Shown: positions 35,508 through 63,928 of the stretch, in pieces
Position numbering within the stretch: the first letter of the stretch is position 1
Layout: the number at the start of each line of letters is the position of its first letter
DNA from: Bryobacterales bacterium
GTDB taxonomy: Bacteria; Acidobacteriota; Terriglobia; Bryobacterales; UBA6623
DNA length: 64,000 bases
Direction of reading: 5' to 3'
Assembly: GCA_965214655.1 (NCBI GenBank)
Contig: OZ243965.1
Location: 2,916,048-2,980,047, forward strand
The notes under the pieces: generated by a model
Told to the model about the DNA's origin: nothing
Database searches by the model: none
Seen by the model: only the letters and a program-made list of their open reading frames with translations
Translations under genes and position numbers: made by a program

Positions 35508-37460
35508 ATGAACAAGATGCTCATCCGATTAGCCGTTCTGCTCGCTGTTATCGGCATGGTCGCCGGCGGTTACTACCTGGTCCAACAGATTCCCGAGGAC
35601 GAATCGACGATCGTGCTCGCGGAGGTCAAACGCGGCGACCTGGTTGTCAAGACGTTTTTGCGGGGAGAGTTGCGCGCCGTGCGCTCGCTGACGTTGACCG
35701 CGCCGAACATCGGCACGCAGTCCCAGATCACGCAGTTGGCGCCGGCCGGGGCGCTGGCCAATCGCGGCAATCTCATTTTCGAGCTTGACGATTCCGAGCG
35801 GGTGGCGGCGCTGGAAGACAGCCTGCTGGAGGTCGAAAAAATCCAGGAAGACCTCAAGAAGGCGGAGACCGAGCTCGATATCCGCAAAAGCCAGGACGAA
35901 GTCGAGATCGTCCGCGCCAATTTCCAGGTGCGCCGCGCCGAGCTTGAGGTTCGCCGCAACGAGTTGATCTCGGAAATCGACGCCCGCAAGAATATTTTGA
36001 CCTTGGAAGAGACGCGCAGACGCAAGCAAAAGCTCGAAGAAGACATCAAGAACCGCTTGCAGCAGCGCGAAGCCGAGCTTGCCGTTTTGCGCGAGCAGCT
36101 CAATAAGGCGCAACTCGACGTGGACCGCGACAAGCGGCGCATCGAGCAGTCCCGCGTGCTGGCGCCCATGACGGGATTGGTCTCGGTGCTGCAAAACCGC
36201 TCCGGCGGCCGCGGCGGCTTCGGACAATCGACGCCCGACATTCGGGAAGGCGATCAGATCCCGGCGGGGATGTCGGTGGCGCAATTGCTCGATCTGTCCG
36301 AGATGGAGCTCGTGACCAAAGTCGAGGAAGTCGAGCGCGCCAACCTCAAGGAAGGCCAGACCGTGGTGATCCGCCTCGACGCCTTGCCCGGCAAGACGGT
36401 CGAAGGCAAGATCGAACGCTTGGGCAACACGGCATCGACCAACATCTTCGCGGGCGAAGCGACCAAGAAATTCGAGTGCGTGATCTCGATCGACATGAGC
36501 CAGTTGCTCAGCCACGTCGGCGCTGACGGGGAGCGCATCGAACGCATCATGGCGACGGCGCGCGCAAATGCGGCTACCGGCTACGGTTCGTCCGGCGGCG
36601 GGCAGGGCGGCGGCGGCAACCGTCAGGCGCAAGGCGGGCAGGGCGGCCGACAACAGGCTCAGGGCGGCGGCGGGCAGCGCGGGCAGGGCGGCGGCGGCAA
36701 CCGTCAGGCGCAAGGCGGGCAGGGCGGCCGGCAACAGGCTCAGGGCGGCGGCGGTCAAGGCGGCCGCCGCGGCGGATTCGATCCGGCGGCCATGCTCAGC
36801 CGGCTTCCGGAAGACGCCCGCAAGAAGGCGGAAGCGCTGCTCAAAGGCCGCGGGCCGCAAGAATTGAGCAACGAGGAACGCCAGCAGTTTCGGCAAATCA
36901 TGCAGGCTGCGTTTCAACGCGGCGGCGGACAGGGCGGCGGCAGAGGCGGCGCGGGCGGCGGCGGCTTCGCTCCTCCCGGGGGCGGCGGATTCGGCGCGGG
37001 CGGCGGACGCGGCGGAGCGCCCGCCGCGCCGAGCGGTCCGACTTCCAGCGGGTCGGAATTCAGCGCCGAGCAGCGCCAGGCGGCCATATTGCCGCGCCCG
37101 CCGGAAGAGGGTTCGGATGTCGATATCCTCCTGCGCCCCGGGCTTCTGGCCGACGCCGAAGTGATCGTCGAAAGCATTCCCGACACGCTGTATATTCCTT
37201 TCCAGGCAGTGTTCGAAGACGGGTCGCAATCCATCGTCTACGTGCTGGAAGGCGGCAGCCTGCGCCCGCGGCGAGTCTCGCTCGGCAAGCGCTCGGAATC
37301 GCAAATAGCCGTAATCGAGGGACTCGAAGAAGATGAAAGGATCGCCTTGCAAGCTCCCGGCAGCGCACCGGGCGCGGCTCGCAAAGCCGAGGAAAAATCC
37401 TCCGGCCCGTCTCTTCCCAGCGGCGGCGGACTCGGCGGCGGCGGGAGACGAGGCGGCTGA
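35508..37460 (+). CDS. efflux transporter periplasmic adaptor (HlyD/MacA family), copy 2, with a Gly/Gln-rich low-complexity insertion
   Basis: 650 aa. N-terminal anchor, AEVKRGDLV.., an alpha-hairpin and VLAPMTGLV.. as in MacA. About 160 aa of G/Q/R-rich sequence then lies between the beta-barrel and the membrane-proximal segment (...LADAEVIVESIPDTLYIPFQAV..VYVLEGG..RPRRVSLGKRSESQIAVIEGLEEDERIAL). Confidence 0.85.
   Translation: MNKMLIRLAVLLAVIGMVAGGYYLVQQIPEDESTIVLAEVKRGDLVVKTFLRGELRAVRSLTLTAPNIGTQSQITQLAPAGALANRGNLIFELDDSERVAALEDSLLEVEKIQEDLKKAETELDIRKSQDEVEIVRANFQVRRAELEVRRNELISEIDARKNILTLEETRRRKQKLEEDIKNRLQQREAELAVLREQLNKAQLDVDRDKRRIEQSRVLAPMTGLVSVLQNRSGGRGGFGQSTPDIREGDQIPAGMSVAQLLDLSEMELVTKVEEVERANLKEGQTVVIRLDALPGKTVEGKIERLGNTASTNIFAGEATKKFECVISIDMSQLLSHVGADGERIERIMATARANAATGYGSSGGGQGGGGNRQAQGGQGGRQQAQGGGGQRGQGGGGNRQAQGGQGGRQQAQGGGGQGGRRGGFDPAAMLSRLPEDARKKAEALLKGRGPQELSNEERQQFRQIMQAAFQRGGGQGGGRGGAGGGGFAPPGGGGFGAGGGRGGAPAAPSGPTSSGSEFSAEQRQAAILPRPPEEGSDVDILLRPGLLADAEVIVESIPDTLYIPFQAVFEDGSQSIVYVLEGGSLRPRRVSLGKRSESQIAVIEGLEEDERIALQAPGSAPGAARKAEEKSSGPSLPSGGGLGGGGRRGG
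36600..36761 (+). repeat. 2 x 81-nt near-perfect tandem repeat inside the adaptor gene (encodes 27-aa GQGGGGNRQAQGGQGGRQQAQGGGGQ(R/G) units)
   Basis: 36600-36680 and 36681-36761 differ only at one internal base and in the last ~8 nt. They are in frame with the CDS. Confidence 0.9.
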
Positions 37461-46626: not shown

Positions 46627-49600
46627 TCAAGCTCCGGCGCGGTCGGGGTCGCTGCCGTACCACACCAGCAGAATCCACCGCGAGCAGTTGTCGAGCAGCA
46701 CGTAATAGGTCGGCAGCACGACCAAGGTCAACAGCGTCGACGCCATCAGGCCGCCCATTACGGTCCGCGCCAGCGGAAAATATTTCATCTCGAACAAGCC
46801 GCCGCTACCCCAGGCGAGCGGAATCAGTCCGACGATCGTCGTCGCCGCAGTCATCGTGATCGGCCGCAGCCTTTCCGCGCAGCCGCGAAGAATCGCTTCC
46901 CGGCGCTCGATTCCGGCGCGGCGCAGGTTGTTGATGTGATCGATCAGCACGATTCCGTTGTTGACGACGATGCCGACGAGCACGATCATGCCGATCCAGG
47001 CCATCATATTGAACGGCGTGCTCGTGGCGAGTAGGAAAAGAGCGACCCCGACCACCGCGAAGGGCATGGACAACATGATCGCGAACGGGTGGAAGATCGA
47101 CTCGAACAGCGCCGCCATCACGAAATAGACCATGACCAGAGAGAGCATCAGGTTGAACACGAACTGAGCTTCTTCCTGGTCGTTCTGCTGCGTCCAGAAA
47201 CTGTAGGTCCAACCGTAGCCGGGCGGATACGCCAGCGAGTCCAGAACCTCCTGCATGGCTTTCCGCCCTTCGTCGATCTTCTGGCCGGTAAAAACGGCCT
47301 GGACATAGGTATAGGTGCGCCGGTCTTCGCGCCGAATTCTGCCGGGAACCTTTTCGAGGCTGAAATCCGCGACTTGCTCCAACGTAATCTGCCTTCCATT
47401 GGGGCCGCTGCCGACGATCACCGCCTTGAGATCTTCGATGCTCTGCATGTCCGCCGGATGGAGTCCGATCCACATTTCGGTCTCGCCGTCCGCGGTGCGG
47501 AACCCTCTCATGCGGGCGGCCCGCACCGTCATGCCGAGCACTTGGCTCACCGTCTCGGCGGAAATATCGTATTTGCGGGCCACTGCGCGGTTCATCCGTA
47601 TCTGCACTTCGCGGCGCGCGTCCTCAAGTCCGGCGTAGACCTCGCCGAACTGGTCCAGGGCCATGAGCCTCTTCCTGGCCTCGGCCGCCAGCCCGCGCAG
47701 CACGACAGGGTCGTCGCCGTAGATATTCGCGCCCACCCACGATTCGCTCTGAGCGCCTTCTTGCCGTCCGGGCTTGATCTCGGCGCCGGGGATCACCGGC
47801 AGGCCCTCGTCGATCTTCTTCCGGATATCGGGCATCTCCGCCGCCGAGATTACGTTCTTGTCGAAATAAACGCGGGTCGAGGCTTGGTTGTTGGAGTAAG
47901 TCGTCATCGTCGACTTGATCTTGAATGCATCCTGGTTCGCCAGCAGGAAAGCTTCGACCGGACGCACGTAGTCGGCCGCGATCTTGGCGTAGTGGTAGTT
48001 TTCCGAAAAGTCGTAATTGATCCGCAATTCGCTCAATTCCTGGGCGTCGGGCGTGGTGTCTGGAACGACCTCTGTCAGCAGATAAATCGCGCCGGCCAGC
48101 ACGGCGGGCACCATGAGCAGGCCGGTGAGCTTGGGCCAACGCAAATGCCAACCCACCCAGGCGACATATTTCTCGGTGATGTCCGCGCGGCCCCGCCCGC
48201 CGGGGCCGCCGCGAACGATCCTCGCCGCCAGCCGCGCAGGCGCCGCCAGCGCGTTCGTCAAGGCCGCCTCGAAACGGGAGCGCCGGTTGACATCGATATC
48301 CAAAAACCGCGAGAGCGCCAGCGGAATCAAGGTCAGAGAGATGAACAGCGAGCAGGACAGCGCGAATATGATCGACAGACCGACGTGTCCGAGCAAGACC
48401 GAGTTCTGGCTTTCGGAATCGAGCAGCAGCGGCACAAAGATGATCATCGATGTCGCCGTGGCCGCAATTACGGCCATCGTTACCTCGCCGGCGCCGATCA
48501 CCGCGGCGTCCTTCCGCGCGTCGCCCCTTTCGAGCTTCTGGAAAATGGACTCCAGCACGACGACGGCGTTATCGACCAGCATGCCCGCGGCCAACATCAG
48601 ACCCATCATCGAAAGCGTGTTCAACGTCTTCCCGTTCATGTACAGAAAGCCGATGGCGGCAACGATGGAAAAGGGAATCGCCGAGCCGATGACGAGACTG
48701 GCGTTCAGCCGCCGCAGGAAGAGAAACAGCACCAGAACCGAGAGCACGGAGCCGATGACGCCGGCCTTCAGCAGCTCCACGAGCCCCTTGTAAATTTCGT
48801 CGCCGGCATTGTGCCACCACATGACTTCCAGACCCTCGAGCGCCGGATCGGCCTTCCATTCCTCGGCGAGCGCCATGATTGCGTTGACGGTATCGACGGT
48901 ATTCGCTTCCGACGTTCGTTGCACCCAGAATCCTACGGCGAATTCGCCGTTCAAAAGACGCCCGTAATCGCGGTCCCGTTCGTCGTAGCGGATGTCGGCG
49001 ACGTCGCTCAGGACGAGTCCCGCGAATTGACGGGAAAGTCGCGCAGATCCTCCAACGAGGTCATGCTTCCCTTGGCCACGGCGGCATAGCGCATGCCGCC
49101 GTCTTCCATCCGGCCGAGCGAGACGTTCAGATTCGAGCCGTCCAGCGCGCGGAACAGGCGGCCGACGTCGACCCGGTAGCGTTTGAGGTCGTCGAGGCGC
49201 AGATAGATGTCCACCTGCTTGCGGTCGGTTCCGTAAAACTCGACGTTTCCCACTCCGCGGATACGTTCCAGGGGCTTCTGGATCTTGGCGTCGAGGAATT
49301 CGTAGTCTCCGCGCAGATCGCGTTTCGCGGAGATCGACCCCTCGACGATCGGGATCTCGTCGGTGTTGAAGTTGCGCACGTGGATCAGTCGCAGATCGCT
49401 GGGAAGGTCTCCGCGGATGCGGTCGATTTTCTCGCGGATTTCGGCGCGCAAGATCTCGACGTCGGCCGACATGCCGCAAAAAATTTCGATCTGGACGGAA
49501 TCCTCGCCGGTCCAGGAGCTCATCCGCTTGACCCCGGGGATGGTCGCCAGCACTTCTTCCACGGGTTTCGTAATCGACTCGAGTATCTGTTCCGGGGTGG

Positions 49601-49799
49601 CGTTGGGGTACGAAGCCCACACGAAAAGCACCGGCGCGTCCAATCGCGGGATCAGGAGCAGGGGAATCTTGGCCAGGGAGATCACTCCCATCAGCACGAT
49701 GGTCACGAAGATCATGCAGATCGTGACGGGCCTGCGGATGGAGAAAGCCGCCAGCTTGCGGCCGCCGGCATCGGCGCTTTGGTTGACCGGAGCGCTCAA
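46627..49799 (-). pseudogene. RND efflux pump (AcrB/MdtC-like) interrupted by a single-base frameshift near 49019-49021
   Basis: The N-terminal 263 aa (track ORF 49008-49799: FSIRRPVTICMIFVTIVLMGVISL...SLEDLRDFPVNSRDSS*) and the remainder (46627 to ~49030: ..LVLSDVADIRYDERDRDYGRLLNGEFAVGFWVQ...) lie in adjacent frames. One extra C in the run at 49019-49021 would give ..FPVNSRGLVLSDVADI.., the expected contiguous RND sequence. The first ~200 aa of track ORF 46627-49620 are Arg/Pro-rich shadow. This could instead be an assembly error. Confidence 0.7.
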
Positions 49800-49811
49800 T
49801 GAATCCTCCTG

Positions 49812-52800
49812 CTAATCGCCGTCGGAGACGGCGCCTTCGAGGCGTCCGTCGAATGTTTCGACCGCGGCCGGCAATGCCGCGCGGTCGGCCGGAACGACCG
49901 CGCGGCGGTCGAAAACGTCGTAAACGACAGGGATCAGGATCAAAGTCAACAACGTGGAGAACGTGAGCCCGCCCATGACGGCGATGGCCATCGGCGCCCG
50001 CACTTCATCGCCTTCGCCCCATCCCAGCGCCATCGGGGCCAACCCGAGCACCGTTGTCAGCGTCGTCATCAGAATCGGCCGCAAGCGGGTCTGCGCCGCT
50101 TCGATCAACGCCTCGCGCTTGCTGCGGCCGGCGCGCCTGAGTTGATTCGTGTAGTCGATCAGAACGATAGCGTTGTTCACGACGATTCCGGCCAGGACGA
50201 TGACGCCCAGCAGAACCACCACGCTCACCGCAGTGCCCGTCAGCGCCAGCATGAACACCACGCCGACCAGCGCCAGGGGCAGCGTGAAAAGAATGATGAA
50301 CGGATGAATCAACGATTCGAACTGAGAGGCCATCACCAGATACACCAAAAATATCGCCAGGCCGAGAGCGAACATCAAGCTGTTGTAGGATGCTTCGAAT
50401 TCTTCGTTTTGGCCGCCCAGGGCGACGGTCGTGTTCAGCGGCAGGCGGTCGGCGATCTCGGCGAGTGCGGCGCGGATTTCCGCGGACACGCCCGTCAGGT
50501 CGCGGCCGGCGATGCTCGCGCTGACGACTGCGGCCCGCTGCGATCGAATGCGGCGGATTTCGCTGGGGCCGCGCGCGATCGAAACGTCGGCCACCTGCCT
50601 CAAGCGGATCGGCACGAATGCTTCGCGGGCGCCGTTGCCGGCCGCGGGATTCCCGCCGCCCGCCGCTTGCTCCCCATTGTTTCTTGCCGCGCCGTTCTGC
50701 GCGCCGGCGCCGGAAGGGCTGTCCACGATCAAATCGCGAAGGTCCGAAACCGCGTCGCGGTCTTGTTCGCCCGCTCGAACGACGATGTCGATCTGCCTGT
50801 CTCCCTGACGGTAGCGGGAAGCCAAATCGCCGCGGATCTTGTTGCGCAGCAGTGCGGCGACTTGACTTTCCTCGAGGCCGAGCCGGCTCATGCGGAAGCG
50901 GTCGAAGCGGATTTGAACCTCGGGGCTGCCCAAGCGGGTCGAAGTTTGAATATCGTAAAGTCCTTCGATGCGCTCCAGCCTTTCGGCTACCAGATTCGCA
51001 GCCGCGCGCTGGTCTTCCACCTCGTAGGTAAAGATCTCTACTTCCACCGGCGTCTTGAAGCTGAACAGCGTCGGACGGCTGAACCGATGGCTCACTTCGG
51101 GGAATCCGGCCAGTTGCTCGCGAATGCCTCGGATCGTCCGGGCTTCCAACTCCTGGGACCCGCTCGAGCCCGAGACGAAATCCACGAAGCGCCTGAAGTA
51201 GCGCTCTGCTTTCCCCAGCGGGTCAAGACCCTCGAGACGCGCGGAGGGCTTTTCCATGACCACGTGCAGAGTGCCGATATTCTCTTCCAGCGTCCCCGAC
51301 GCGAACTGATTTTTCTGACTGCCGCCGACGCTCGAGAATACTTCCGCTACGCCGGGGTAGCGCCGGACGCTTTCTTCCAGTTCGAGCAAGACGGCGTCGG
51401 TTGCTTCGAGCGGCTTGCCCTCCGGCAGGCGGACTTCGAAGGAAAACTCCCCTTGGGTAAGCGGCGGAATCAACTCGCCTCCCAGGAAGCCGGAGGCGCC
51501 CGCCGCCAACGCGACCGCCGCGGCGACCGTTGCCGAAACCGCTGTTTTGTGGTTCAGCGACTTCTCCAGCCAATGGGGATAGGCTGCGGACAACCGCTCG
51601 AACGTTCGGTCGAACCAGTTCAGGAAGGGTCCCAGGATGCGGGCGGCGGCCCGTCCGCAAAAACGCAGGCAGCGGCGGATATCGCGCAAGACGATTCGCG
51701 GAGTCGCCAGCAACCCGAAACGAACCCCGCGGGCGAGCGATCCCCGCAGGCCGGACTGCGGGGCTGCGCTTATCTGTTGCCGTTCCGTATCGAACAACTC
51801 CTGTGTCTTGATCTCGAAGGCCAGCAACATCGGAATGAAGGTCAGCGCCACGGCCAGCGAAGCCAACAGGGAATAGGTGATGGTCAACGCCTGGTCGGTG
51901 AAGAGTTGCCCGGCAATGCCCTCGACAAAGACCAGCGGCAGAAAAACGGCCACCGTCGTCAGCGTCGAAGCGGTCACCGCCATGCCCACCTCGCGCGTCC
52001 CCCGATAGACCGTTTCGGCGAGACCTGCGCCCGGTTTGCGATGGCGGTACACGGACTCGAGCACGACGATCGAGTTGTCCACCAGCATCCCCACTCCAAG
52101 CGCAACGCCGCCGAGGGACATGATGTTCAAGCTGATGCCCGTCTGGTACATCAGCGCAAACGTCGCCATGATCGAAATCGGGATGGCCGCTCCGATAATC
52201 AGCGTGCTGCGCAGGTGGCGCAAGAATACGAAAAGCACGAATGTGGCGAGTATTCCGCCGAACAGGGCCGCTTGCAAAACGTTGCCGATGCTCTGGGAGA
52301 TGAAGTCCGCCTGATCGAACACCACCGCCGTTTCGACCGCTTTCGGGAATGTGCTCTCCTTGCGAATCCGATCGAGCCGCTCGCGGACGGCCTCGGCGAC
52401 GGCGACGGTGTTGGCGTCGCCTTCTTTATAGACCGCCATCTCGACGCTTTCGTTGCCGCCATAGCGGGCGATGATGTCGCGGTCTTTCGAGCCGCGCCAC
52501 ACGCGGGCGACGTCCTGGAGCAAGATCTGCCGCCCGCCGGTATCCTGCACGACAATCCGGCGAATGTCCTCTACCGTCCGGAATTCGTTGAGCATGCGGA
52601 CGTTGTAATTGGCTTCGAGATCGTAAAGGCTGCCGCCGGCCTGGTTCAGATTTTCGTCCTGGAGAATGGACGTGACCGTCGTAATGGGAATGCCCAACTC
52701 GGCCAGCCGTTTCTCGTCGACCTCGATGCGGATCTGCTCTTCGCGCCCGCCGGTCACCTTGACCGCAGCCACGCCGTCGAGCGCCTCGATGCGTTTTTTG

Positions 52801-53273
52801 AGGTCGCGCTCGGCGATGTCCCGCAACCGGGCCAGACTCAACTTGCCGTGAACCTGAATGCGCTGGATCGGGTCGTTCGAAGGGTCGAAGCGCAGGATGA
52901 CCGGTTTCTCGACGTCCCGCGGCAACTCCACGAAGTCGATCTTTTCGCGCACCTCCATGCCCGCAAGGTCCATGTCGGTATCCCAGACGAACTCCAGAAC
53001 GATCTCCGATTGTCCGGGCCGCGAGGTGGAGCTGATGCGGTTCAGGCCCGAAACGACCGCGACCGTCTCTTCCAACGGCCGCGTAATCAATGTCTCGATC
53101 TCCTCCGGCGCCGCGTCCTCGTAATCGGTTTGGACCGTAATCGACGGATAGGAGATATCCGGCAGCAGATTCACCGTCAAGCGGTCGAGCGAGACGGCTC
53201 CGAACAACAGGACCGCCACGACGACCATGAACACGCTTACGGGCCGGTTGATGGCGGTGCGGACGGTGTTCAT
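49812..53273 (-). CDS. RND efflux pump (AcrB/MdtB-like), enlarged (1153 aa)
   Basis: MNTVRTAINRPVSVFMVVVAVLLFGAVSL.., 12-TM architecture, GVGMLVDNSIVVLES and VLAGIVVNNAIVLIDY are conserved TM4/TM10 regions. Extra segments include a G/A/N-rich stretch. Confidence 0.93.
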   Translation of the reverse strand: MNTVRTAINRPVSVFMVVVAVLLFGAVSLDRLTVNLLPDISYPSITVQTDYEDAAPEEIETLITRPLEETVAVVSGLNRISSTSRPGQSEIVLEFVWDTDMDLAGMEVREKIDFVELPRDVEKPVILRFDPSNDPIQRIQVHGKLSLARLRDIAERDLKKRIEALDGVAAVKVTGGREEQIRIEVDEKRLAELGIPITTVTSILQDENLNQAGGSLYDLEANYNVRMLNEFRTVEDIRRIVVQDTGGRQILLQDVARVWRGSKDRDIIARYGGNESVEMAVYKEGDANTVAVAEAVRERLDRIRKESTFPKAVETAVVFDQADFISQSIGNVLQAALFGGILATFVLFVFLRHLRSTLIIGAAIPISIMATFALMYQTGISLNIMSLGGVALGVGMLVDNSIVVLESVYRHRKPGAGLAETVYRGTREVGMAVTASTLTTVAVFLPLVFVEGIAGQLFTDQALTITYSLLASLAVALTFIPMLLAFEIKTQELFDTERQQISAAPQSGLRGSLARGVRFGLLATPRIVLRDIRRCLRFCGRAAARILGPFLNWFDRTFERLSAAYPHWLEKSLNHKTAVSATVAAAVALAAGASGFLGGELIPPLTQGEFSFEVRLPEGKPLEATDAVLLELEESVRRYPGVAEVFSSVGGSQKNQFASGTLEENIGTLHVVMEKPSARLEGLDPLGKAERYFRRFVDFVSGSSGSQELEARTIRGIREQLAGFPEVSHRFSRPTLFSFKTPVEVEIFTYEVEDQRAAANLVAERLERIEGLYDIQTSTRLGSPEVQIRFDRFRMSRLGLEESQVAALLRNKIRGDLASRYRQGDRQIDIVVRAGEQDRDAVSDLRDLIVDSPSGAGAQNGAARNNGEQAAGGGNPAAGNGAREAFVPIRLRQVADVSIARGPSEIRRIRSQRAAVVSASIAGRDLTGVSAEIRAALAEIADRLPLNTTVALGGQNEEFEASYNSLMFALGLAIFLVYLVMASQFESLIHPFIILFTLPLALVGVVFMLALTGTAVSVVVLLGVIVLAGIVVNNAIVLIDYTNQLRRAGRSKREALIEAAQTRLRPILMTTLTTVLGLAPMALGWGEGDEVRAPMAIAVMGGLTFSTLLTLILIPVVYDVFDRRAVVPADRAALPAAVETFDGRLEGAVSDGD

Positions 53274-53285
53274 TCGGGTTGGCTC

Positions 53286-54503
53286 CTAGCCCTCGATCGC
53301 GCGGGTCTTGTCGCCGTCCTTGAGGTTGCCCTGGCCCGCGGTCACGACGCGGTCGCCGGCATCGACGCCGGCGAGGACTTCATAAGCCGTGTCGTCCTGA
53401 TAACCCAACTCGACGGCGCGCCGCTCGGCTGTGTTGCCGTTTTCGACGAACACAAAAGTCCCGCCGTCTTCTTCGACCACCGCTTGCTTGGGAATCAACA
53501 CGACGTCGCTGTGGGTATCCGTCTCGATCTGCACCATGACGAATGCGCCCGGGCGGAATTGCGAACCCGACGGACGCAACTCGGTGGTCACCTTGACGGT
53601 GCCGGTCGCGTCGTCGACGACGGGGCTGACGCGCACAACGCGGCCGGCGACCTCTTCGCCGTCCGCCGCGCCCAGCCGAATGACGGCCTTTTGATTGGGC
53701 CGCACCCGCTGCGAGTCCTGCTCGGCCAAATGAACATCGGCGAACAGAGGCGTAAACACCCCGATTTCGAACAGCTTGTCGGAGTTGCGCACCGTTTGGC
53801 CCAACTCGACGGTTCGTTCCGTCACGCGGCACGAAAAGGGCGCGACGATTCGCGTGCGCGAGATCATCAGCTTGACCTTGCGTATCTCGGACTCCAGTTC
53901 CTCGATACGATGTTTCTGTTCCCGAACCGTCGCCTCTTCGACTCGACGGTCGTGCAGCAACTCGTCGAGTCGATGCCGCATGGCGATGACCTCGGTATCG
54001 CTCACGAGGCCCTCGGCGAGCGCTTCTTCGTTCCGTTCGAGCTCGGCGCGCTGATTCCTGATCTGCGTTTGCGCTTTTTCGAGGCGGATTTCGGCCGATT
54101 CGCGTTGAGCCTTCGTCTGCGCCAAGCGCTGCTGCGCAAGCGCCAGATCGATCTGCAAGTCGCGGTCGTCAAGGCTTGCGAGCAGATGTCCCTCCTGGAC
54201 GAAGTCGCCTTCTTCCGCGGCCACCGAGCGGACAACGCCGTCCGCCTGGCTGGCGATCTCGACCTCGCGCATGGCCCGCAGATTTGCCGTCGAGACCAGC
54301 AAGTCGGAGATCGCGCCGCGCACCGCCTCTTGAATCGCGACCGGAATCGCAGCGTCGTCCGCGCTCTCTTCCCCGTTTTTGGTTTTCGCTTGGGCAGACG
54401 CGGCTTCCGGGCCGTAATTCCGCCAACCGTAATATCCGCCGGCGCCCAGAACGGCCAAAACCAGCAGGAACAGATATGCTTTGGCGCGATCGCTCATTCG
54501 CAT
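53286..54503 (-). CDS. RND efflux periplasmic adaptor (MFP/HlyD family)
   Basis: Trimmed to the ATG at 54503 (alternative at 54497): MRMSDRAKAYLFLLVLAVLGAG anchor, barrel-sandwich, alpha-hairpin (54000-54200), ..IVAPFSCRV.., C-terminal beta-barrel. It lies directly upstream of the two RND genes. Confidence 0.88.
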   Translation of the reverse strand: MRMSDRAKAYLFLLVLAVLGAGGYYGWRNYGPEAASAQAKTKNGEESADDAAIPVAIQEAVRGAISDLLVSTANLRAMREVEIASQADGVVRSVAAEEGDFVQEGHLLASLDDRDLQIDLALAQQRLAQTKAQRESAEIRLEKAQTQIRNQRAELERNEEALAEGLVSDTEVIAMRHRLDELLHDRRVEEATVREQKHRIEELESEIRKVKLMISRTRIVAPFSCRVTERTVELGQTVRNSDKLFEIGVFTPLFADVHLAEQDSQRVRPNQKAVIRLGAADGEEVAGRVVRVSPVVDDATGTVKVTTELRPSGSQFRPGAFVMVQIETDTHSDVVLIPKQAVVEEDGGTFVFVENGNTAERRAVELGYQDDTAYEVLAGVDAGDRVVTAGQGNLKDGDKTRAIEG

Positions 54504-54702
54504 GCTTCTCCCTTTGCCCGGGCGCGCGCTTCGCGGCGCCTGACTTAAACTACGTAAAAAAACCGCTGCTTGTTCCCCGCAAAATGGCCGGGACGCCAAT
54601 ATCGACGCTTCCTACTCTCAGTTTGACGCAACCGCGCCCGATTTGTGTTTCAAGAGATTTTCAGGGAAGCGGCAGCGCGGCAAGAGCGCCGAGCGGACGG
54701 CT

Positions 54703-58546: not shown

Positions 58547-58746
58547 CGGCTCGAACCATTTTGCGGTTCCGGCCCCATGCGCCGCAACCCGCCGCCGCGC
58601 CGCGGGCGATCTCCAGACGCCTGGAAACGCAGCGCGGGGAGAGCGGCCGGGAATTCGCAACTCATTGGGAGCGCTAACTTTAATTGCAAATGGTATGCTG
58701 ATTGCCAAGTGCGCGCGAGCCGTCAGGCAAGCGGCGCCAAGCGCCC

Positions 58747-60243
58747 ATGTGCGCCCTGATGATGCAGCAGAGGACCGGATTGGAGCTTCGCCAGAAGCCC
58801 ATCCTCACCCAGAGTCTGCGGCAGCTTGTCGAGTTGCTGGCGCTCAATCGGTTGGAGTTGCGCGCGAAAATCGACCGCGAGCTCGAGGAAAACCCGGTTC
58901 TTGAATCGGCCGAGGAAGCGGGCGTCGCTACGTTTCCGGACGGGGAGCCGCCGGCGCCGGAGTGGGCTTCGGAAACTGGCGAAGGCGCCTCCGGCGAGGC
59001 TGACGGAAACGCCCTGGAAGATATCGACCTGGAGAAATTTTACGAAGATTATTTCGACGCCGCGCCGAACGGGCGGTCCCTCGAATCCGTCGAGAGACCT
59101 TCGCCCGAGTTGTTTTTGGCCGCTCCGACGACGCTGAGCGATCATCTGCTGCGGCAATTGAGTCTGAGGCCGATTGCGCAGGATGTCCGCCGCGCCGCCG
59201 AGTCGATCATCGGCAACCTGTCGGGCGACGGCTATTTGTCTGCCTCTCTCGAAGAGGTTGCCCGCGCGGCGGATGGAAATCTTGCCGCGGCCGAACGGGC
59301 TTTGCGCCTGGTGCAGGGATTCGACCCGCCCGGCGTTGCCGCCCGGAGCTTGCGCGAGTGCCTGCTGCTTCAGTTGCAAGCGGCGGGGAAAAGGGATTGT
59401 CCCGCGTTCGACATTCTGCTCGACTGCTTCGAGATGCTGGAGCGGGGGGAAACGGCGCGGATTGTCGAAGCGCTGCGTTCCACCGAGCGAGAAGTCCGGC
59501 GGGCAATGAAGACGATTCGGTCATTGGATCCGCGCCCCGGACAGCGCTATCGGCAAACGCAAAATCACTATGTCGAGCCCGACGTTTGCTTTGTCGAGAC
59601 GGCGGGGGGATTCCGCGCCGTTCTCAATGAAGAGGGGCTGCCCGAGCTTCGCGTAAACCGCGGCTACTTGCGCATGCTCGCACGCGGCAAGTCCGACAAG
59701 GATGTCCGCAGCTACGTCAGGGAGCGTTACAATTCGGCGTTTCGGCTGCTGCGCAACATCGAGCAGCGCCGGCAGACGATTCGGCGGACGTGCGAGGCGA
59801 TCGCCCGGCGCCAGGGCGCATTCCTCGCCAACGGGCCGGACTCCCTGCGGCCGATGATGATCAAGGATGTCGCCGAGGAAATCGGCGTTCACCCGTCGAC
59901 GGTCAGCCGCGCCGCGGCCAACAAATACGCGCATACGCCGCACGGCGTCTACGCATTGCGGTCTTTTTTCTCGGAGAACGTTCAGGGGCCGGCGGGCGCG
60001 GCGATGCCGCTGGCGTTGCTCAAGCGCAAGGTCAAGCAAATCATCGCGGCCGAAGACCCGGAAAAGCCGTTGACGGACGATGCTCTCAGCAAAATCCTGA
60101 GGGATGGCGGGATTCACGCGGCGAGGCGCACGGTGGCGAAATACCGAGAGGATTTGGGCATCCCCTCTACCCACAAGCGCCGCCGCAAGCATGCGGCGAA
60201 AGTTTGGGAAAATAGGAACGGCAGGCAGAAAAGGAGCGCATGA
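58747..60243 (+). CDS. rpoN: RNA polymerase sigma-54 factor
   Basis: Start at Met 58747 or 58759. Region I L.L.QKPILTQSLRQLVELLAL, an acidic region II, the core-binding region, an HTH and the RpoN box ARRTVAKYRE. Confidence 0.93.
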   Translation: MCALMMQQRTGLELRQKPILTQSLRQLVELLALNRLELRAKIDRELEENPVLESAEEAGVATFPDGEPPAPEWASETGEGASGEADGNALEDIDLEKFYEDYFDAAPNGRSLESVERPSPELFLAAPTTLSDHLLRQLSLRPIAQDVRRAAESIIGNLSGDGYLSASLEEVARAADGNLAAAERALRLVQGFDPPGVAARSLRECLLLQLQAAGKRDCPAFDILLDCFEMLERGETARIVEALRSTEREVRRAMKTIRSLDPRPGQRYRQTQNHYVEPDVCFVETAGGFRAVLNEEGLPELRVNRGYLRMLARGKSDKDVRSYVRERYNSAFRLLRNIEQRRQTIRRTCEAIARRQGAFLANGPDSLRPMMIKDVAEEIGVHPSTVSRAAANKYAHTPHGVYALRSFFSENVQGPAGAAMPLALLKRKVKQIIAAEDPEKPLTDDALSKILRDGGIHAARRTVAKYREDLGIPSTHKRRRKHAAKVWENRNGRQKRSA

Positions 60244-60815
60244 GAGTTCATTACACGGGCCGCAAAACGGAATTGGCCGCAGGAGAGCGGGCGAAGCTGC
60301 AAAGGAAGTTCGATAAAATTCACCGCGTCTTGAACCGTCGATCCGATTTGGAGGCGCATGTCACTCTCTCGCGGCAGCGCCACTTGTGCGAAGCGGAAGT
60401 GACCCTTCGCGCTCTGCGCCATACGCTTGTGGTGACGCACGCGGCCGTCGCGCCGTTCGGCGCGCTGCATGGAGCTCTGGAAAAGTTGGAGAAACAGGCC
60501 GTTCGCAATAAGCACAAGATCATCGATACGCACCGTCCCGGCAGGCAGCGCGATCGTCCGGCGGCAGTGGTCGCGGAATCCATCAGCGGCCTTGAAGAAG
60601 AGCTCGGCCGCGCGCCCGTCGAAGAGTTGCCCCGGGCGCAGCCGATCATTCGTTCGAACAGCCTCGCGCCCAAGCCGCTGACTGCGGAAGGCGCCGCGCT
60701 CGCGCTCGAGGTCAGCGGACGCGACCACATTTCTTACCGCGATGCCGACAGCGGCCGAGTGCATGTCTTGCTGCGCCGCAGAGACGGCTCGCTGGAGCTG
60801 ATCGAGGCCGAGTAG
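60240..60815 (+). CDS. hpf: ribosome hibernation promoting factor (long HPF / sigma-54 modulation protein)
   Basis: The ATG overlaps the rpoN stop (ATGA), with RBS aaaggag 5 nt upstream. MRVHYTGRKTELAAGERAKLQRKFDKI.. is the RaiA/HPF N-domain. The C-terminal dimerisation domain ..ISYRDADSGRVHVLLRRRDGSLELIE is also present. Confidence 0.9.
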   Translation: MRVHYTGRKTELAAGERAKLQRKFDKIHRVLNRRSDLEAHVTLSRQRHLCEAEVTLRALRHTLVVTHAAVAPFGALHGALEKLEKQAVRNKHKIIDTHRPGRQRDRPAAVVAESISGLEEELGRAPVEELPRAQPIIRSNSLAPKPLTAEGAALALEVSGRDHISYRDADSGRVHVLLRRRDGSLELIEAE

Positions 60816-60819
60816 CTCC

Positions 60820-61716
60820 GTGCCTTACGACGCAGAGTCCGCGGCGGGGAATCCGCTCGAAGACGTGCGCCTGGTGGTCATCACCGGTCTGAGCGGCTCG
60901 GGGAAGGGCACCGTCCTCAATGTATTCGAGGACATGGGCTTCTATACGGTCGATAATCTTCCGGTCAACTTGATCCCGACGTTCACCGACCTTTGCCGCG
61001 CTTCGGCCGAGATCTCGCGGGCGGCCCTGGTCATCGATATCCGCGACAGAGTGGGGCTGAGCCGGTTTCCGCAAATTTACAGCCGGACCGCGGCTGAGAT
61101 CCCCGCGCAGCTTATCTTTCTGGAAGCGATGGACGACGTGCTGCAGCGCCGGTTCAGCGAAACGCGGCGCCCGCACCCTATCGGCGGCTCCACGGTGCAG
61201 GAGAGCATTGCCGAAGAACGCGAGATGTTGGGCGCGGTCCGACAACTGGCGGACATTACCATCGACAGCTCGCGGCACACCATTCACGAATTACGACAAA
61301 AGATTCGAACGCTGTTCGAGAAAGTCGATACGGAGCCGGCGATGCGCATAACGGTGGGCAGCTTCGGTTTCAAACACGGCGTTCCCACCGATGCCGATCT
61401 GCTTTTCGACGTGCGCTTCTTGCCGAACCCGCATTACGAGCCGGGCTGCCGTTACCTGACCGGCAAAGATCGTCAGGTAGCGGATTTCGTGGCGAAGTTT
61501 CCCCAAACGCAGGAGTTCATTGCGCGGGCGGCGGAGATGATCTCTTTTCTTTTGCCGCACTACATCGGTGAAGGGAAGAGCTATATCTCGATCTACTTCG
61601 GCTGCACGGGCGGCCGTCACCGCGCGGTTTTCATCGCCGAGACCATCGCCGGGCATTTAACGCGGGGCGGCCGCGGCGTGAAGATCTATCACCGCGACAT
61701 CGAAAAAAATATCTGA
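60820..61716 (+). CDS. rapZ: RNase adapter protein RapZ (P-loop, YhbJ family)
   Basis: GTG start. VVITGLSGSGKGTVLNVFEDMGFYTVDNLP, FGFKHGVP..ADLLFDVRFLPNPHY, GCTGGRHRAV. Confidence 0.93.
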   Translation: MPYDAESAAGNPLEDVRLVVITGLSGSGKGTVLNVFEDMGFYTVDNLPVNLIPTFTDLCRASAEISRAALVIDIRDRVGLSRFPQIYSRTAAEIPAQLIFLEAMDDVLQRRFSETRRPHPIGGSTVQESIAEEREMLGAVRQLADITIDSSRHTIHELRQKIRTLFEKVDTEPAMRITVGSFGFKHGVPTDADLLFDVRFLPNPHYEPGCRYLTGKDRQVADFVAKFPQTQEFIARAAEMISFLLPHYIGEGKSYISIYFGCTGGRHRAVFIAETIAGHLTRGGRGVKIYHRDIEKNI

Positions 61717-61734
61717 CGCGGCGCGCTTCGACCC

Positions 61735-62199
61735 CTACTCTTCCTTGATCTCGGCGCTGATGGCAATATCGATCGCGCCTCTGACGCTCATGGCCGCAGG
61801 GCATTTCACCGGGTGCGTGTCCAGCGCGCGCTGCGCCCGGTCGCGGGTTCCCGCGGGAATCTTGAGGTGGTAGCGGACCCGGATGCGGGTGATGCGCATG
61901 ATGCCGTCGACATTTTCGACGTCGCCTTCGACCTCGCTCCAAACCTTGTCGGGATGATTCGGAATCTTGCGGACTGCCAGGGCCCCTGACAGAGTGCCGG
62001 TCAGTCAACCGCCGACCGCAGCGACGATATGGTCGAGAGTCGCCGGCAGGTCTCTGGCGGGCTCCATGCCGTAGAAGCGCTTGATGCCGCCGTGAACTCC
62101 GAATACCAGCGGTTCCTCGAAGCCTTCGATGTACGCGCGGCGCTCCGGGGGCTTGTCTTGGTAAAGCTTGATGCGGGAAGTGTGGACCGGTTCGCTCAT
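61735..62199 (-). CDS. OsmC/Ohr-family peroxiredoxin-like protein with an in-frame TGA at the conserved Cys position (candidate selenoprotein, or a nonsense pseudogene)
   Basis: The frame is continuous from the ATG at 62199 to the TAG at 61735-61737 (155 codons) except for the TGA at 62005-62007 (codon 65). Translation: ..PATLDHIVAAVGG[TGA]LTGTLSGALAVRKI...RAQRALDTHPVKCPAAMSV... This matches the OsmC pattern (p.ell.AalagC....l ... CPv), with the TGA in place of the first conserved Cys. Confidence 0.7.
61974..61992 (-). promoter_or_regulatory. bSECIS-like hairpin 12 nt downstream of the in-frame UGA
   Basis: The minus-strand RNA reads UGA CUGACCGGCACU [CUGUCAGG GGC CCUGGCAG] UCC. The stem is 8 bp (7 Watson-Crick plus one U-G) with a G-rich apical loop (GGC, or GGGCC if the closing pair opens). 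The loop starts about 20 nt after the UGA. Confidence 0.5.
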
Positions 62200-62232
62200 A
62201 GCACCATTCTAGTCGTTTTGTCGGCCGGCAAT

Positions 62233-62943
62233 TCAAGCACGTAGCCGTTTCCGGCCGGAGCGGTTCAGCCAGCGCGGCAGAGCGGCGATGCTTGCCAAGA
62301 CCGCGGCGGGTTCGTAGCGCGCGAAGGCTGCTGCCGGAGTCGTTCCGCTGAGCACGGCGGCGAAAGGAATCTCCGCTCGACGGGCGGTTTCCGCGTCCGT
62401 AACGCTGTCGCCGACATAAAGGACCGCTTCGCGGAGCTGCCGCATGCTGTCCGCCGCGGCGAGCAGGCCCTCCGGCGAAGGCTTGAACTCGGTTACGTCG
62501 TCGCCTCCAACGACCGCCTCGAATCTTCCCCTCAGCCCGTCGCGTTCCAGAACGTCTTCGATGCGGCAGCGGAATTTGGTCGACACGATTCCCAGGCGCA
62601 GCCCTTGCAGCCGCAAGACCCGCAGCGTCTCGGGCACGAACGGGAAGATGGTTGTCCGCTCGACCATGATCTTGTCCGAAAGCTCTCGGAAATGGCGGCG
62701 AAATTCCTGAGCGCGCGAGCGCCGCCCCTCGCCGGCCAGGCGGACGAGAGTTTCCGGCAGCGAAAGACCGATGGTCGCGCGGACGGCGTCTGCGCTGACC
62801 GGAGCAAGCTCCATCCGTTCGAACGCATGGGCTACACAGGCGATTACGGCGGACGATGAGTCCGCGAGAGTATAGTCGAAGTCGAATACGACCGCCGAGG
62901 GCAATTTCCATTGTCCGCGATCCGCCGGCTCGTAGCGTCTCAC
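62233..62943 (-). CDS. HAD-superfamily hydrolase (phosphoglycolate phosphatase-like, subfamily IA)
   Basis: GTG start at 62943 (alternative at 62961). Only the 3' third of the track ORF 62233-63369 is protein-like. VVFDFDYTLADS (DxDxT motif I), ..IVSTK.. (motif II), YVGDSVTDAETARRA (motif IV). Confidence 0.82.
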   Translation of the reverse strand: MRRYEPADRGQWKLPSAVVFDFDYTLADSSSAVIACVAHAFERMELAPVSADAVRATIGLSLPETLVRLAGEGRRSRAQEFRRHFRELSDKIMVERTTIFPFVPETLRVLRLQGLRLGIVSTKFRCRIEDVLERDGLRGRFEAVVGGDDVTEFKPSPEGLLAAADSMRQLREAVLYVGDSVTDAETARRAEIPFAAVLSGTTPAAAFARYEPAAVLASIAALPRWLNRSGRKRLRA

Positions 62944-62980
62944 ATCTATCTGAACCGGCACATGCCCTAGACTGAAGCAG

Positions 62981-63928
62981 GTGACGTTTCTCCGTTTTTC
63001 GCCCAGGACACTGTTGATCGCGGCCGTCACGCTTGAGGTAGCCGGCGGCCTCTTGATTGTTTTTTCGCTTCCCGCAGGGGGCGCGGCGATGTGGCTGGGC
63101 ATTGCTCTGATTGCAGTCGGCTCGCTGGCGATGCGCAGCGTCCTCGGCCGCATGGACGCCGAGCGGAAACGGGCGCCCGATGCCCCGGCCGCAACCGCCG
63201 CCGGGGCGGAAGATATCGAGTCGGAATTGAAAAAGCCCGCGCCGCGCGCCGTGAAGTTGACGGCGCGGGGCAATCTCGTCGCCGCTGTGTGGTTGGCGGT
63301 AACGGCGCCGGCGGGCGTGCTGGCTTGGCGGCACTTCAACCGCTTGCCGCCGCCGCGGATGAAGTCCATGCTGGCCTCCGAGGGAGAGTCGGCCGCCGCG
63401 GTAATTCACCGCAAGCAGACATTCGCGGTCGAGGGCGGGGGGGCGCGGCATGCGATCGGGTACAACTTCAACGATGAGTCGGGCGCCTCCATTCGCTCAA
63501 GCGTAACCGTGCCGCGCGCCCTGTTCGACTCCCTTGCGCAAGGAGAGCGTCTCGAGGTGGTCTACTTTCCGCCCGACCCGTCGATCCACTACCTTCCCGA
63601 GATTACGTCGCCGGTGACGACGCGCGTAGTCTGGTTGGCGTTGGGGATTCTGGCCGCCGCCGCGCTGCTCGCCAATGCGCAGCGGCGGACGCATAAAAAG
63701 CTCGTCGCCGAAGGGCGCGCCGTTTGCGGATTCGTCGCCGGCGTGCGGCGCCGGGGCGGCGTCCGCTCGTTTCTGGTGAACTACGACGTTGGCGGAGAGC
63801 GCCGCACCGTTGGCGCTTCGGAGCGCAACGCCGGACTCGAAAACGGGCAGACGGCGACCGTGCTCTACGACCCCCGCCGAGCCGACCGGGCGGTTGTCTA
63901 CAGGTTGGCGCTCTACCGCGCGAAATAG
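62981..63928 (+). CDS. membrane protein with two DUF3592-like modules
   Basis: GTG start. TM helices at LLIAAVTLEVAGGLLIVF, AAMWLGIALIAVGSLA, LVAAVWLAVTAPAGVLAW and VVWLALGILAAAALLA. Each pair is followed by a beta-rich module ending ..GERLEVVYFPPDPSI.. and ..GQTATVLYDPRRADRAVV.., the DUF3592 pattern. Confidence 0.65.
   Translation: MTFLRFSPRTLLIAAVTLEVAGGLLIVFSLPAGGAAMWLGIALIAVGSLAMRSVLGRMDAERKRAPDAPAATAAGAEDIESELKKPAPRAVKLTARGNLVAAVWLAVTAPAGVLAWRHFNRLPPPRMKSMLASEGESAAAVIHRKQTFAVEGGGARHAIGYNFNDESGASIRSSVTVPRALFDSLAQGERLEVVYFPPDPSIHYLPEITSPVTTRVVWLALGILAAAALLANAQRRTHKKLVAEGRAVCGFVAGVRRRGGVRSFLVNYDVGGERRTVGASERNAGLENGQTATVLYDPRRADRAVVYRLALYRAK

Follow-up and report, generated by a model that had tools for sequence, protein, structure and literature searches.

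A probable selenocysteine-containing protein of the OsmC/Ohr superfamily in a Bryobacterales bacterium and its relatives in other phyla

Results

An OsmC-like gene interrupted by a single in-frame TGA

The stretch of DNA analysed here (the window) comprises 64,000 nucleotides of contig OZ243965.1 from a Bryobacterales bacterium (assembly GCA_965214655.1, positions 2,916,048 to 2,980,047 of the forward strand). On its minus strand, at 61735..62199, lies a gene for a protein of the OsmC fold in which a TGA codon stands at the position of the peroxidatic cysteine, and this codon is very probably decoded as selenocysteine (Sec). A predicted hairpin resembling a selenocysteine insertion sequence (SECIS) follows the TGA. 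The features of the locus are listed below.

61735..62199, minus strand: candidate OsmC-fold selenoprotein gene; 64 codons, UGA (Sec65), 89 codons and TAG, giving 154 residues
62197..62199, minus strand: ATG start codon; homologues begin at the equivalent Met
62005..62007, minus strand: in-frame TGA, residue 65, very probably read as selenocysteine, at the peroxidatic-Cys position
61801..61803, minus strand: TGC codon for Cys133, the presumed resolving Cys, in the motif KCPAAMS
61735-61737, minus strand: TAG stop codon, from direct reading of the sequence
61974..61992, minus strand: predicted SECIS-like hairpin with an 8-bp helix, 12 nucleotides after the UGA
61985-61992, minus strand: 5' arm of the hairpin, CUGUCAGG, read from the sequence
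61982-61984, minus strand: GGC triloop at +24 to +26, with the U of the UGA as +1
61974-61981, minus strand: 3' arm of the hairpin, CCUGGCAG, read from the sequence
61975..62010, minus strand: stretch of synonymous constraint, running from GGT at codon -1 as far as GCA at codon +10 and taking in both the UGA and the hairpin

Direct reading and translation of the frame 62199..61735 gave a single interruption, the TGA at 62005-62007, with no further stop and no frameshift downstream of it. An earlier interpretation made from the letters alone (the sequence-only reading) had described a minus-strand frame uninterrupted save for one TGA, and the 154 sense positions recovered here agree with that description. 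Translation around the TGA gave LDHIVAAVGG, the interruption and then LTGTLSGALAVRK, followed later by THPVKCPAAMS, matching the AAVGG[TGA]LTGTL flank and the ordinary second Cys in HPVKCPAAMS previously proposed; across the Sec column the peptide is HIVAAVGG-U-LTGTLSGALAVR. The codon after the TGA is CTG in the window gene and throughout its clade, where the nearest in-frame ATG downstream is 35 codons away. The layout of 64, 1 and 89 codons is common to 59 of 92 unique homologous genes.

A mechanical listing of open reading frames (ORFs) splits the gene into a 64-amino-acid ORF (62005..62199) and a 54-amino-acid ORF (61735..61899), and also contains a 606-amino-acid ORF (61631..63451) in a different frame. 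G+C fractions at the first, second and third codon positions of this long ORF were 0.75/0.65/0.54, and its translation is Arg-rich nonsense. The two halves of the OsmC gene gave 0.69/0.42/0.78 and 0.65/0.46/0.80, the pattern of domain-supported genes in this 64% G+C window. Because its codon-position composition and Arg-rich translation are unlike those of real genes in the window, the 606-amino-acid ORF is taken to be a shadow ORF, as had been suspected from the sequence.

The TGA falls on the catalytic Cys column of the OsmC/Ohr fold

With Cys written in place of Sec, the window protein matched the Pfam OsmC family PF02566 over residues 55-147 with 42.6 bits (cut-off 27.5). When the family profile was aligned to the solved structures 1QWI, 1NYE and 1UKK, the TGA column coincided with Cys59 of E. 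coli OsmC, which is the Cys in the AAHA(A/G)CF motif of the E. coli and T. thermophilus proteins; the proposed position of the TGA on the Cys column of OsmC homologues is thereby upheld. In the same alignment Cys133, almost invariant in the family, fell on Cys125 of E. coli OsmC (GCPVSQ; 1QWI numbering). We take Cys59 and Cys125 to be the peroxidatic and resolving cysteines of the E. coli enzyme.

Structural comparison used an AlphaFold2 model of the natural Cys homologue P0020, which is 50% identical to the window protein and stood in for it. The model had a predicted local distance difference test score of 93, and all of its top Foldseek matches in the PDB were OsmC, Ohr or OsmC-like proteins (E down to 2.6e-9). 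Against the two-Cys organic hydroperoxide reductases E. coli OsmC and bacterial Ohr (1QWI, 1NYE, 1UKK, 6EB4) the fold is alike, with a Foldseek probability of 1.00 and template-modelling scores of 0.6-0.75, and the catalytic positions correspond (Sec65 to Cys59 and Cys133 to Cys125). The window protein differs from these enzymes in carrying Sec for the peroxidatic Cys and shares only approximately 10-17% sequence identity with the OsmC/Ohr structures. It also fails both subfamily models, scoring 19.8 bits against the OsmC-proper model TIGR03562 (cut-off 85.8) and giving no match to the Ohr model TIGR03561. On its predicted fold and its aligned catalytic positions, the window protein is assigned to the OsmC/Ohr superfamily.

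Conservation of the TGA and exchange with cysteine

Relatives were sought in one genome per species; 581 were found, of which 80 new loci were kept and joined with four earlier ones to give 84. TGA was present at the column in 80 of the 80 motif-matched loci among these. Represented among the TGA-containing loci are Bryobacterales, other Acidobacteriota, Methylomirabilota/Rokubacteria, Deltaproteobacteria, Thermodesulfobacteriota, Marinimicrobia and a metagenome-assembled genome (MAG) labelled Cytophagia. The best match in the species scan, from Bryobacterales, was 92% identical, and OY282420.1 is a 92%-identical relative. In one Bryobacterales MAG the gene is found on two large contigs (L015 and L016; CBDCOA010000003.1 and CBDCOA010000002.1) that are identical across the 70 nucleotides examined from the TGA, representing either a real duplication or a redundant assembly.

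A search across 5.8 billion predicted proteins returned relatives of three kinds. Two are full-length, one with Cys and one with W at the column; the third comprises approximately 100 fragments, which have AAVGG, AATAG or AATAA as their exact end or else start just past the column. Cys occupies the column in P0005, P0020, P0026 and P0027, and 12 metagenomic homologues (L085-L096) have TGT or TGC there, so that Cys-containing orthologues, for which the sequence-only reading had proposed a search, do exist. The Cys orthologues (P0005, P0008, P0020, P0026 and P0027, together with L085-L096) have the same length, layout and motifs (GSCLTGTLAGALEA) as the window protein, to which they are 44-55% identical, with TGT or TGC in place of TGA. 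Their identity to some Sec forms is as high as 78%, the Sec forms L099-L102 being 69-78% identical to L085-L096. Between the window gene and its close relatives the part 3' of the TGA gave a ratio of nonsynonymous to synonymous substitution rates (dN/dS) of 0.05-0.17, and the 5' part lay in the same range.

A hairpin under RNA-level constraint follows the UGA

In the bacterial SECIS of E. coli fdhF a minimal upper helix lies approximately 11 nucleotides 3' of the UGA, and a G in the apical loop is contacted by SelB. The hairpin in the window is likewise directly 3' of the UGA inside the ORF, with a 12-nucleotide spacer and a small loop in which G comes first; it differs from the fdhF element in lacking the bulged U and in having a GGC triloop rather than GGUC. 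An 8-bp hairpin with a G-containing loop 12 nucleotides past the TGA had been noticed previously, and both arms and the GGC loop were found at that place. In isolation the hairpin has a predicted energy of -11.0 kcal/mol. Total minimum free energy gave no signal, and synonymous-site diversity together with a position-constrained hairpin statistic were therefore used as evidence.

In the Sec clade, sampled with 44 unique sequences whose amino-acid identity to the window protein is 70-92%, synonymous heterozygosity was 0.198 at codons +1 to +11 versus 0.476 elsewhere (Mann-Whitney p = 6e-5), and the codons for Ser +6, Leu +9 and Ala +10 showed zero synonymous variation. Rare codons are fixed in the constrained stretch, namely GGT, ACT, TCA and GCA (5%, 6%, 2.2% and 6.5% of their respective codon families). 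No such reduction was seen in the Cys clade, where heterozygosity was 0.409 at codons +1 to +11 versus 0.254 elsewhere. The T of the GGT codon preceding the UGA is almost invariant (heterozygosity 0.05), which a simple hairpin leaves unexplained; a lower stem, or an influence of context on how the UGA is decoded, may be the cause.

Hairpins were then scored by position, a qualifying hairpin having a helix of at least 5 bp and a loop of 3-9 nucleotides that starts at +19 to +36 and has G in its first two positions. All 68 of the 68 unique Sec sequences contained one, with loops starting at +19 to +30, mostly at +24 (GGC) or +30 (GGC or GGA), and with a mean energy of -11.5 kcal/mol versus -5.8 kcal/mol for synonymous shuffles. 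A hairpin with the loop position of the window gene was present in 30 unique relatives. In the +30 design, which belongs to a sister clade, 99.3% of cells were paired, none of 500 shuffles reached the covariation score, and two pairs were changed on both sides in a compensatory manner (A-U with G-C; C-G with U-A). By the same position-constrained search, the hairpin was weak or lost in three of 10 Cys forms. Several Cys forms retain a weakened +30 hairpin with GU pairs replacing GC, which suggests recent Sec-to-Cys replacement with a decaying SECIS. Support for the hairpin comes from synonymous-site constraint and not from folding energy.

Observations weighing against selenocysteine decoding

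A number of results count against the hairpin or against Sec decoding as a whole. Relative to dinucleotide shuffles the hairpin was not unusually stable (z = -0.18, -0.66 and -1.4 for 61, 47 and 26 nucleotides), and relative to synonymous-codon shuffles the folding energy of the region in 79 sequences had a mean z of about -0.4, equal in 68 Sec and 11 Cys forms. The codons of the LxGALA peptide are by nature self-complementary, a similar hairpin persists in several Cys forms, and the register of the hairpin varies by clade, with several designs and no single covarying structure across the family. Rfam gave no matches at the gathering threshold over the whole window and only chance matches (E > 0.3) at a permissive threshold over 61900-62060; Rfam appears to be without a model capturing this element.

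A longer competing fold (61971-62009, minus strand; -16 kcal/mol) is more stable than the hairpin and uses the same 3' arm, which it pairs with nucleotides +2 to +11 (GACUG.CCGG), including part of the UGA; in addition, the GU directly preceding the UGA pairs with the CG of codon +12. With the UGA in the ribosomal A site, nucleotides +2 to +11 would be unwound and the 3' arm released, after which only the hairpin could form. We infer that the hairpin rather than the longer fold is the functional structure, because the lower stem of the competing fold would be melted once a ribosome stands at the UGA.

Genes for the decoding machinery were sought by Pfam scans of approximately 50 window ORFs and by tblastn, with approximate versions of the E. 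coli SelA, SelB and SelD sequences as queries, against the window and all loci. No selA, selB or selD homologue was detected, whether in the 64-kb window or in the DNA flanking the related loci, and ARAGORN found no tRNA gene, tRNA-Sec (selC) included, in the window or related loci. In favour of Sec decoding, use of Sec by Acidobacteriota is recorded in the literature at the phylum level, with three selenoprotein families in Acidobacteria in a 2006 survey (PMC1794560) and Occallatibacter riparius listed as a Sec user with three selenoprotein genes (PMC12013277). No conserved gene for a reductant partner was found near the window gene, and in other lineages the neighbours are wholly different; the genomic surroundings therefore offer no candidate for an operon partner or reductant.

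Alternative explanations of the TGA

The UGA might be recoded without selenium, through near-cognate insertion of Trp or Cys or through lineage-specific reassignment. The failure to detect Sec-machinery genes within the 64-kb window would fit such a reading, as would the full-length database versions with W at the column (P0001-P0004, P0007, P0011, P0013, P0015, P0017, P0019, P0022, P0023 and P0025). The W forms, however, are gene-caller artefacts: the DNA of the P0001 gene (L119, 181-648) has TGA, its table 11 translation differs from the recorded protein, and the W of P0001 arose because genes on its short contig were called with TGA=Trp. TGA terminates 17 of the 32 domain-supported genes in the window and is therefore a normal stop, without genome-wide reassignment. 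Moreover, the column is a redox-active Cys in homologues, the classical Sec/Cys signature, and in its geometry the constrained hairpin matches a published SECIS. Recoding without selenium is accordingly considered distinctly unlikely.

A split gene, in which translation stops at the TGA and restarts to give chains of 64 and 89 amino acids that together form an OsmC-like fold without the catalytic residue, has in its favour the sequence TGAATG, which occurs in many lineages and at whose ATG gene callers start a second ORF. The clade of the window gene has CTG after the TGA, however, with the first in-frame ATG as far as 35 codons away, and Cys homologues too can have Met at this place (GGCMMGTL in P0026), making it an ordinary Leu/Met position. 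A split would also remove the active-site residue, yet uninterrupted Cys orthologues exist, and re-initiation predicts no synonymous constraint 3' of the TGA where the clade has no start codon. We regard this arrangement as very improbable.

An accidental TGA in a former Cys-type OsmC gene, whether a nonsense pseudogene or a sequencing or assembly error, is effectively refuted, since although disrupted genes do occur in the window (an RND-transporter gene is frameshifted near 49,012), the identical TGA is found in all 80 orthologous loci across independent assemblies and phyla, an independent ENA contig has an identical 64-amino-acid N-terminal half with a stop at the same position, and dN/dS is about 0.1 3' of the TGA with no later stops or frameshifts.

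Conservation of the TGA, the Sec/Cys pairs, coding selection 3' of the TGA and the normal use of TGA as a stop therefore rule out that the locus is a pseudogene, that the TGA is a sequencing error or that the code is reassigned, and make a split gene very unlikely. Weighed together with the observations set out above, the locus is in all likelihood a real selenoprotein gene with UGA65 decoded as Sec.

Relation to known OsmC-like selenoproteins

OsmC-like selenoproteins have been known since 2005, when three Sargasso Sea sequences of COG1765 with the motif UxxT were described (PMC1088965, Zhang, Fomenko and Gladyshev), in agreement with the suggestion in the sequence-only reading that such proteins had been reported from metagenomic surveys. 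They form one entry in the family lists of 2022 and 2026. The published Sargasso representative AACY01145085 (PMC1088965 supplement) scored 157.4 bits against the model NF041052, 'OsmC-related (seleno)protein' (cut-off 95), whereas the window protein scored 15.1 bits, below the cut-off; of the other clade members, P0001 gave no match and P0005 scored 28.1 bits.

The Sargasso/Global Ocean Sampling protein shares with the window protein the PF02566 domain, a homologous Sec in helix 1, a second Cys in the C-terminal region and the existence of Cys homologues. Their Sec columns align by BLASTP, with 31% identity over 83 residues and 23% gaps. The published SECIS and the predicted hairpin of the window gene have the same geometry, with a helix at 17-23/27-33 and a GUA loop at 24-26 in the Sargasso sequence and a helix at 16-23/27-34 and a GGC loop at 24-26 in the window gene, G being first in both. 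The two differ in the Sec motif, which is GG-U-L-T-G-T in the window protein (Gly at +3, hence no UxxT) and GF-U-L-L-T in the Sargasso protein, and in the motif around the second Cys (KCPAAMS versus QGCFAEN). The N-terminal part of the window protein is approximately 17 residues longer than that of the Sargasso family, and the hosts differ, being low-GC marine plankton for the Sargasso family and Acidobacteriota, Methylomirabilota and others for the family of the window protein. Judged by these sequence comparisons, the window gene lies outside the published NF041052 family, in a sister clade within the same superfamily.

No description of the clade of the window gene was found in the literature searched, the BSepDB family tables lying outside that search. 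The clade may constitute a second selenoprotein family of the OsmC superfamily, one without a curated model and not in the published family lists covered, although we hold the case for and against this to be evenly balanced. Such a family would comprise proteins of approximately 155 amino acids that have a long beta region at the N terminus and carry the motif GG-U-[LM]-T-G-T, with at least 581 species-level relatives, mainly from soil and sediment Acidobacteriota and Methylomirabilota, in which the SECIS has been rebuilt in at least 4-5 registers and Sec and Cys have been exchanged between close relatives (up to 78% identity).

Annotation in public records

The sequence-only reading had expected automated annotation to split or truncate the gene, and this is what the NCBI, ENA and JGI records contain: the gene is called as pieces of 64 and 89 or 54 amino acids, or the TGA is translated as W. 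No family record examined was correct: some hold just the N-terminal stub, others a C-terminal fragment named 'OsmC family protein', and the rest the full length with a spurious Trp. Counts of selenoproteins in Acidobacteriota and Methylomirabilota are therefore too low, and entries with a spurious W could mislead active-site alignments.

Genomic context

The window gene is convergent with rpoN-hpf-rapZ (58702-61713, plus strand), and its ATG comes 33 nucleotides after the stop codon that ends a HAD-hydrolase ORF, likewise on the minus strand. The rapZ/hpf neighbourhood is retained in sponge-associated Acidobacteria MAGs with an 82%-identical gene. Conserved synteny was confined to rapZ/hpf within Bryobacterales-like genomes, with nothing conserved across phyla. 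In three loci from the sponge-associated MAGs (L001, L002 and L004) a small bacterial-microcompartment cluster is located approximately 8 kb upstream of the orthologue; it begins with a class II aldolase gene, after which come genes for shell proteins, one of BMC and three of EutN/CcmL type (241-2218).

The stop-to-stop frame of the HAD hydrolase (62236-63405, minus strand) has 390 codons with a HAD domain from residue 172 only, and its N-terminal part overlaps an ORF on the plus strand (62954-63925) with coding-like composition and a weak DUF3592 match. Elsewhere in the window, an RND (AcrB-type) transporter gene (46630-49811, minus strand) is split between two frames with the junction near 49,012; ORF 49011-49811 corresponds to ACR_tran positions 2-249 and ORF 46630-50004, from its residue 331, to positions 254-1020. 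This split is a frameshift, which marks either a pseudogene or a misassembly. Directly upstream are an AcrB-type gene that is intact (49815-53285) and one of HlyD type (53289-54611). One other in-frame TGA junction, at 37458-37460, was considered and rejected as a selenoprotein, as it separates two ordinary genes of HlyD and MacB type.

Discussion

Under the proposed mode of decoding, a ribosome reaching UGA65 would encounter a hairpin 12 nucleotides downstream that recruits SelB and Sec-tRNA(Sec), and Sec would be inserted in place of termination. In the protein, the selenolate of Sec65 in helix 1 would attack a hydroperoxide to give a selenenic acid, Cys133 would resolve this to a selenenylsulfide, and a thiol or dihydrolipoyl donor would reduce the latter. 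SelB binding, selenium incorporation, peroxidase activity and the reductant are thus what we infer for this system, the chemistry of Sec65 and Cys133 being modelled by analogy with OsmC/Ohr enzymes.

The finding leaves the understanding of Sec decoding unchanged and would not surprise a specialist. Its value lies in the size of the clade, in the consistent misannotation of its members and in a small, self-contained example of an RNA signal that sits within the codons of a conserved helix and evolves together with them, for which the Cys relatives serve as internal controls. A curated model of the clade would correct the annotation of hundreds of species genomes. If the clade is indeed a second family, it would lend itself to the study of SECIS turnover within constrained coding sequence. 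For the organisms themselves, the finding indicates a probable selenium-dependent hydroperoxide defence in abundant soil bacteria.

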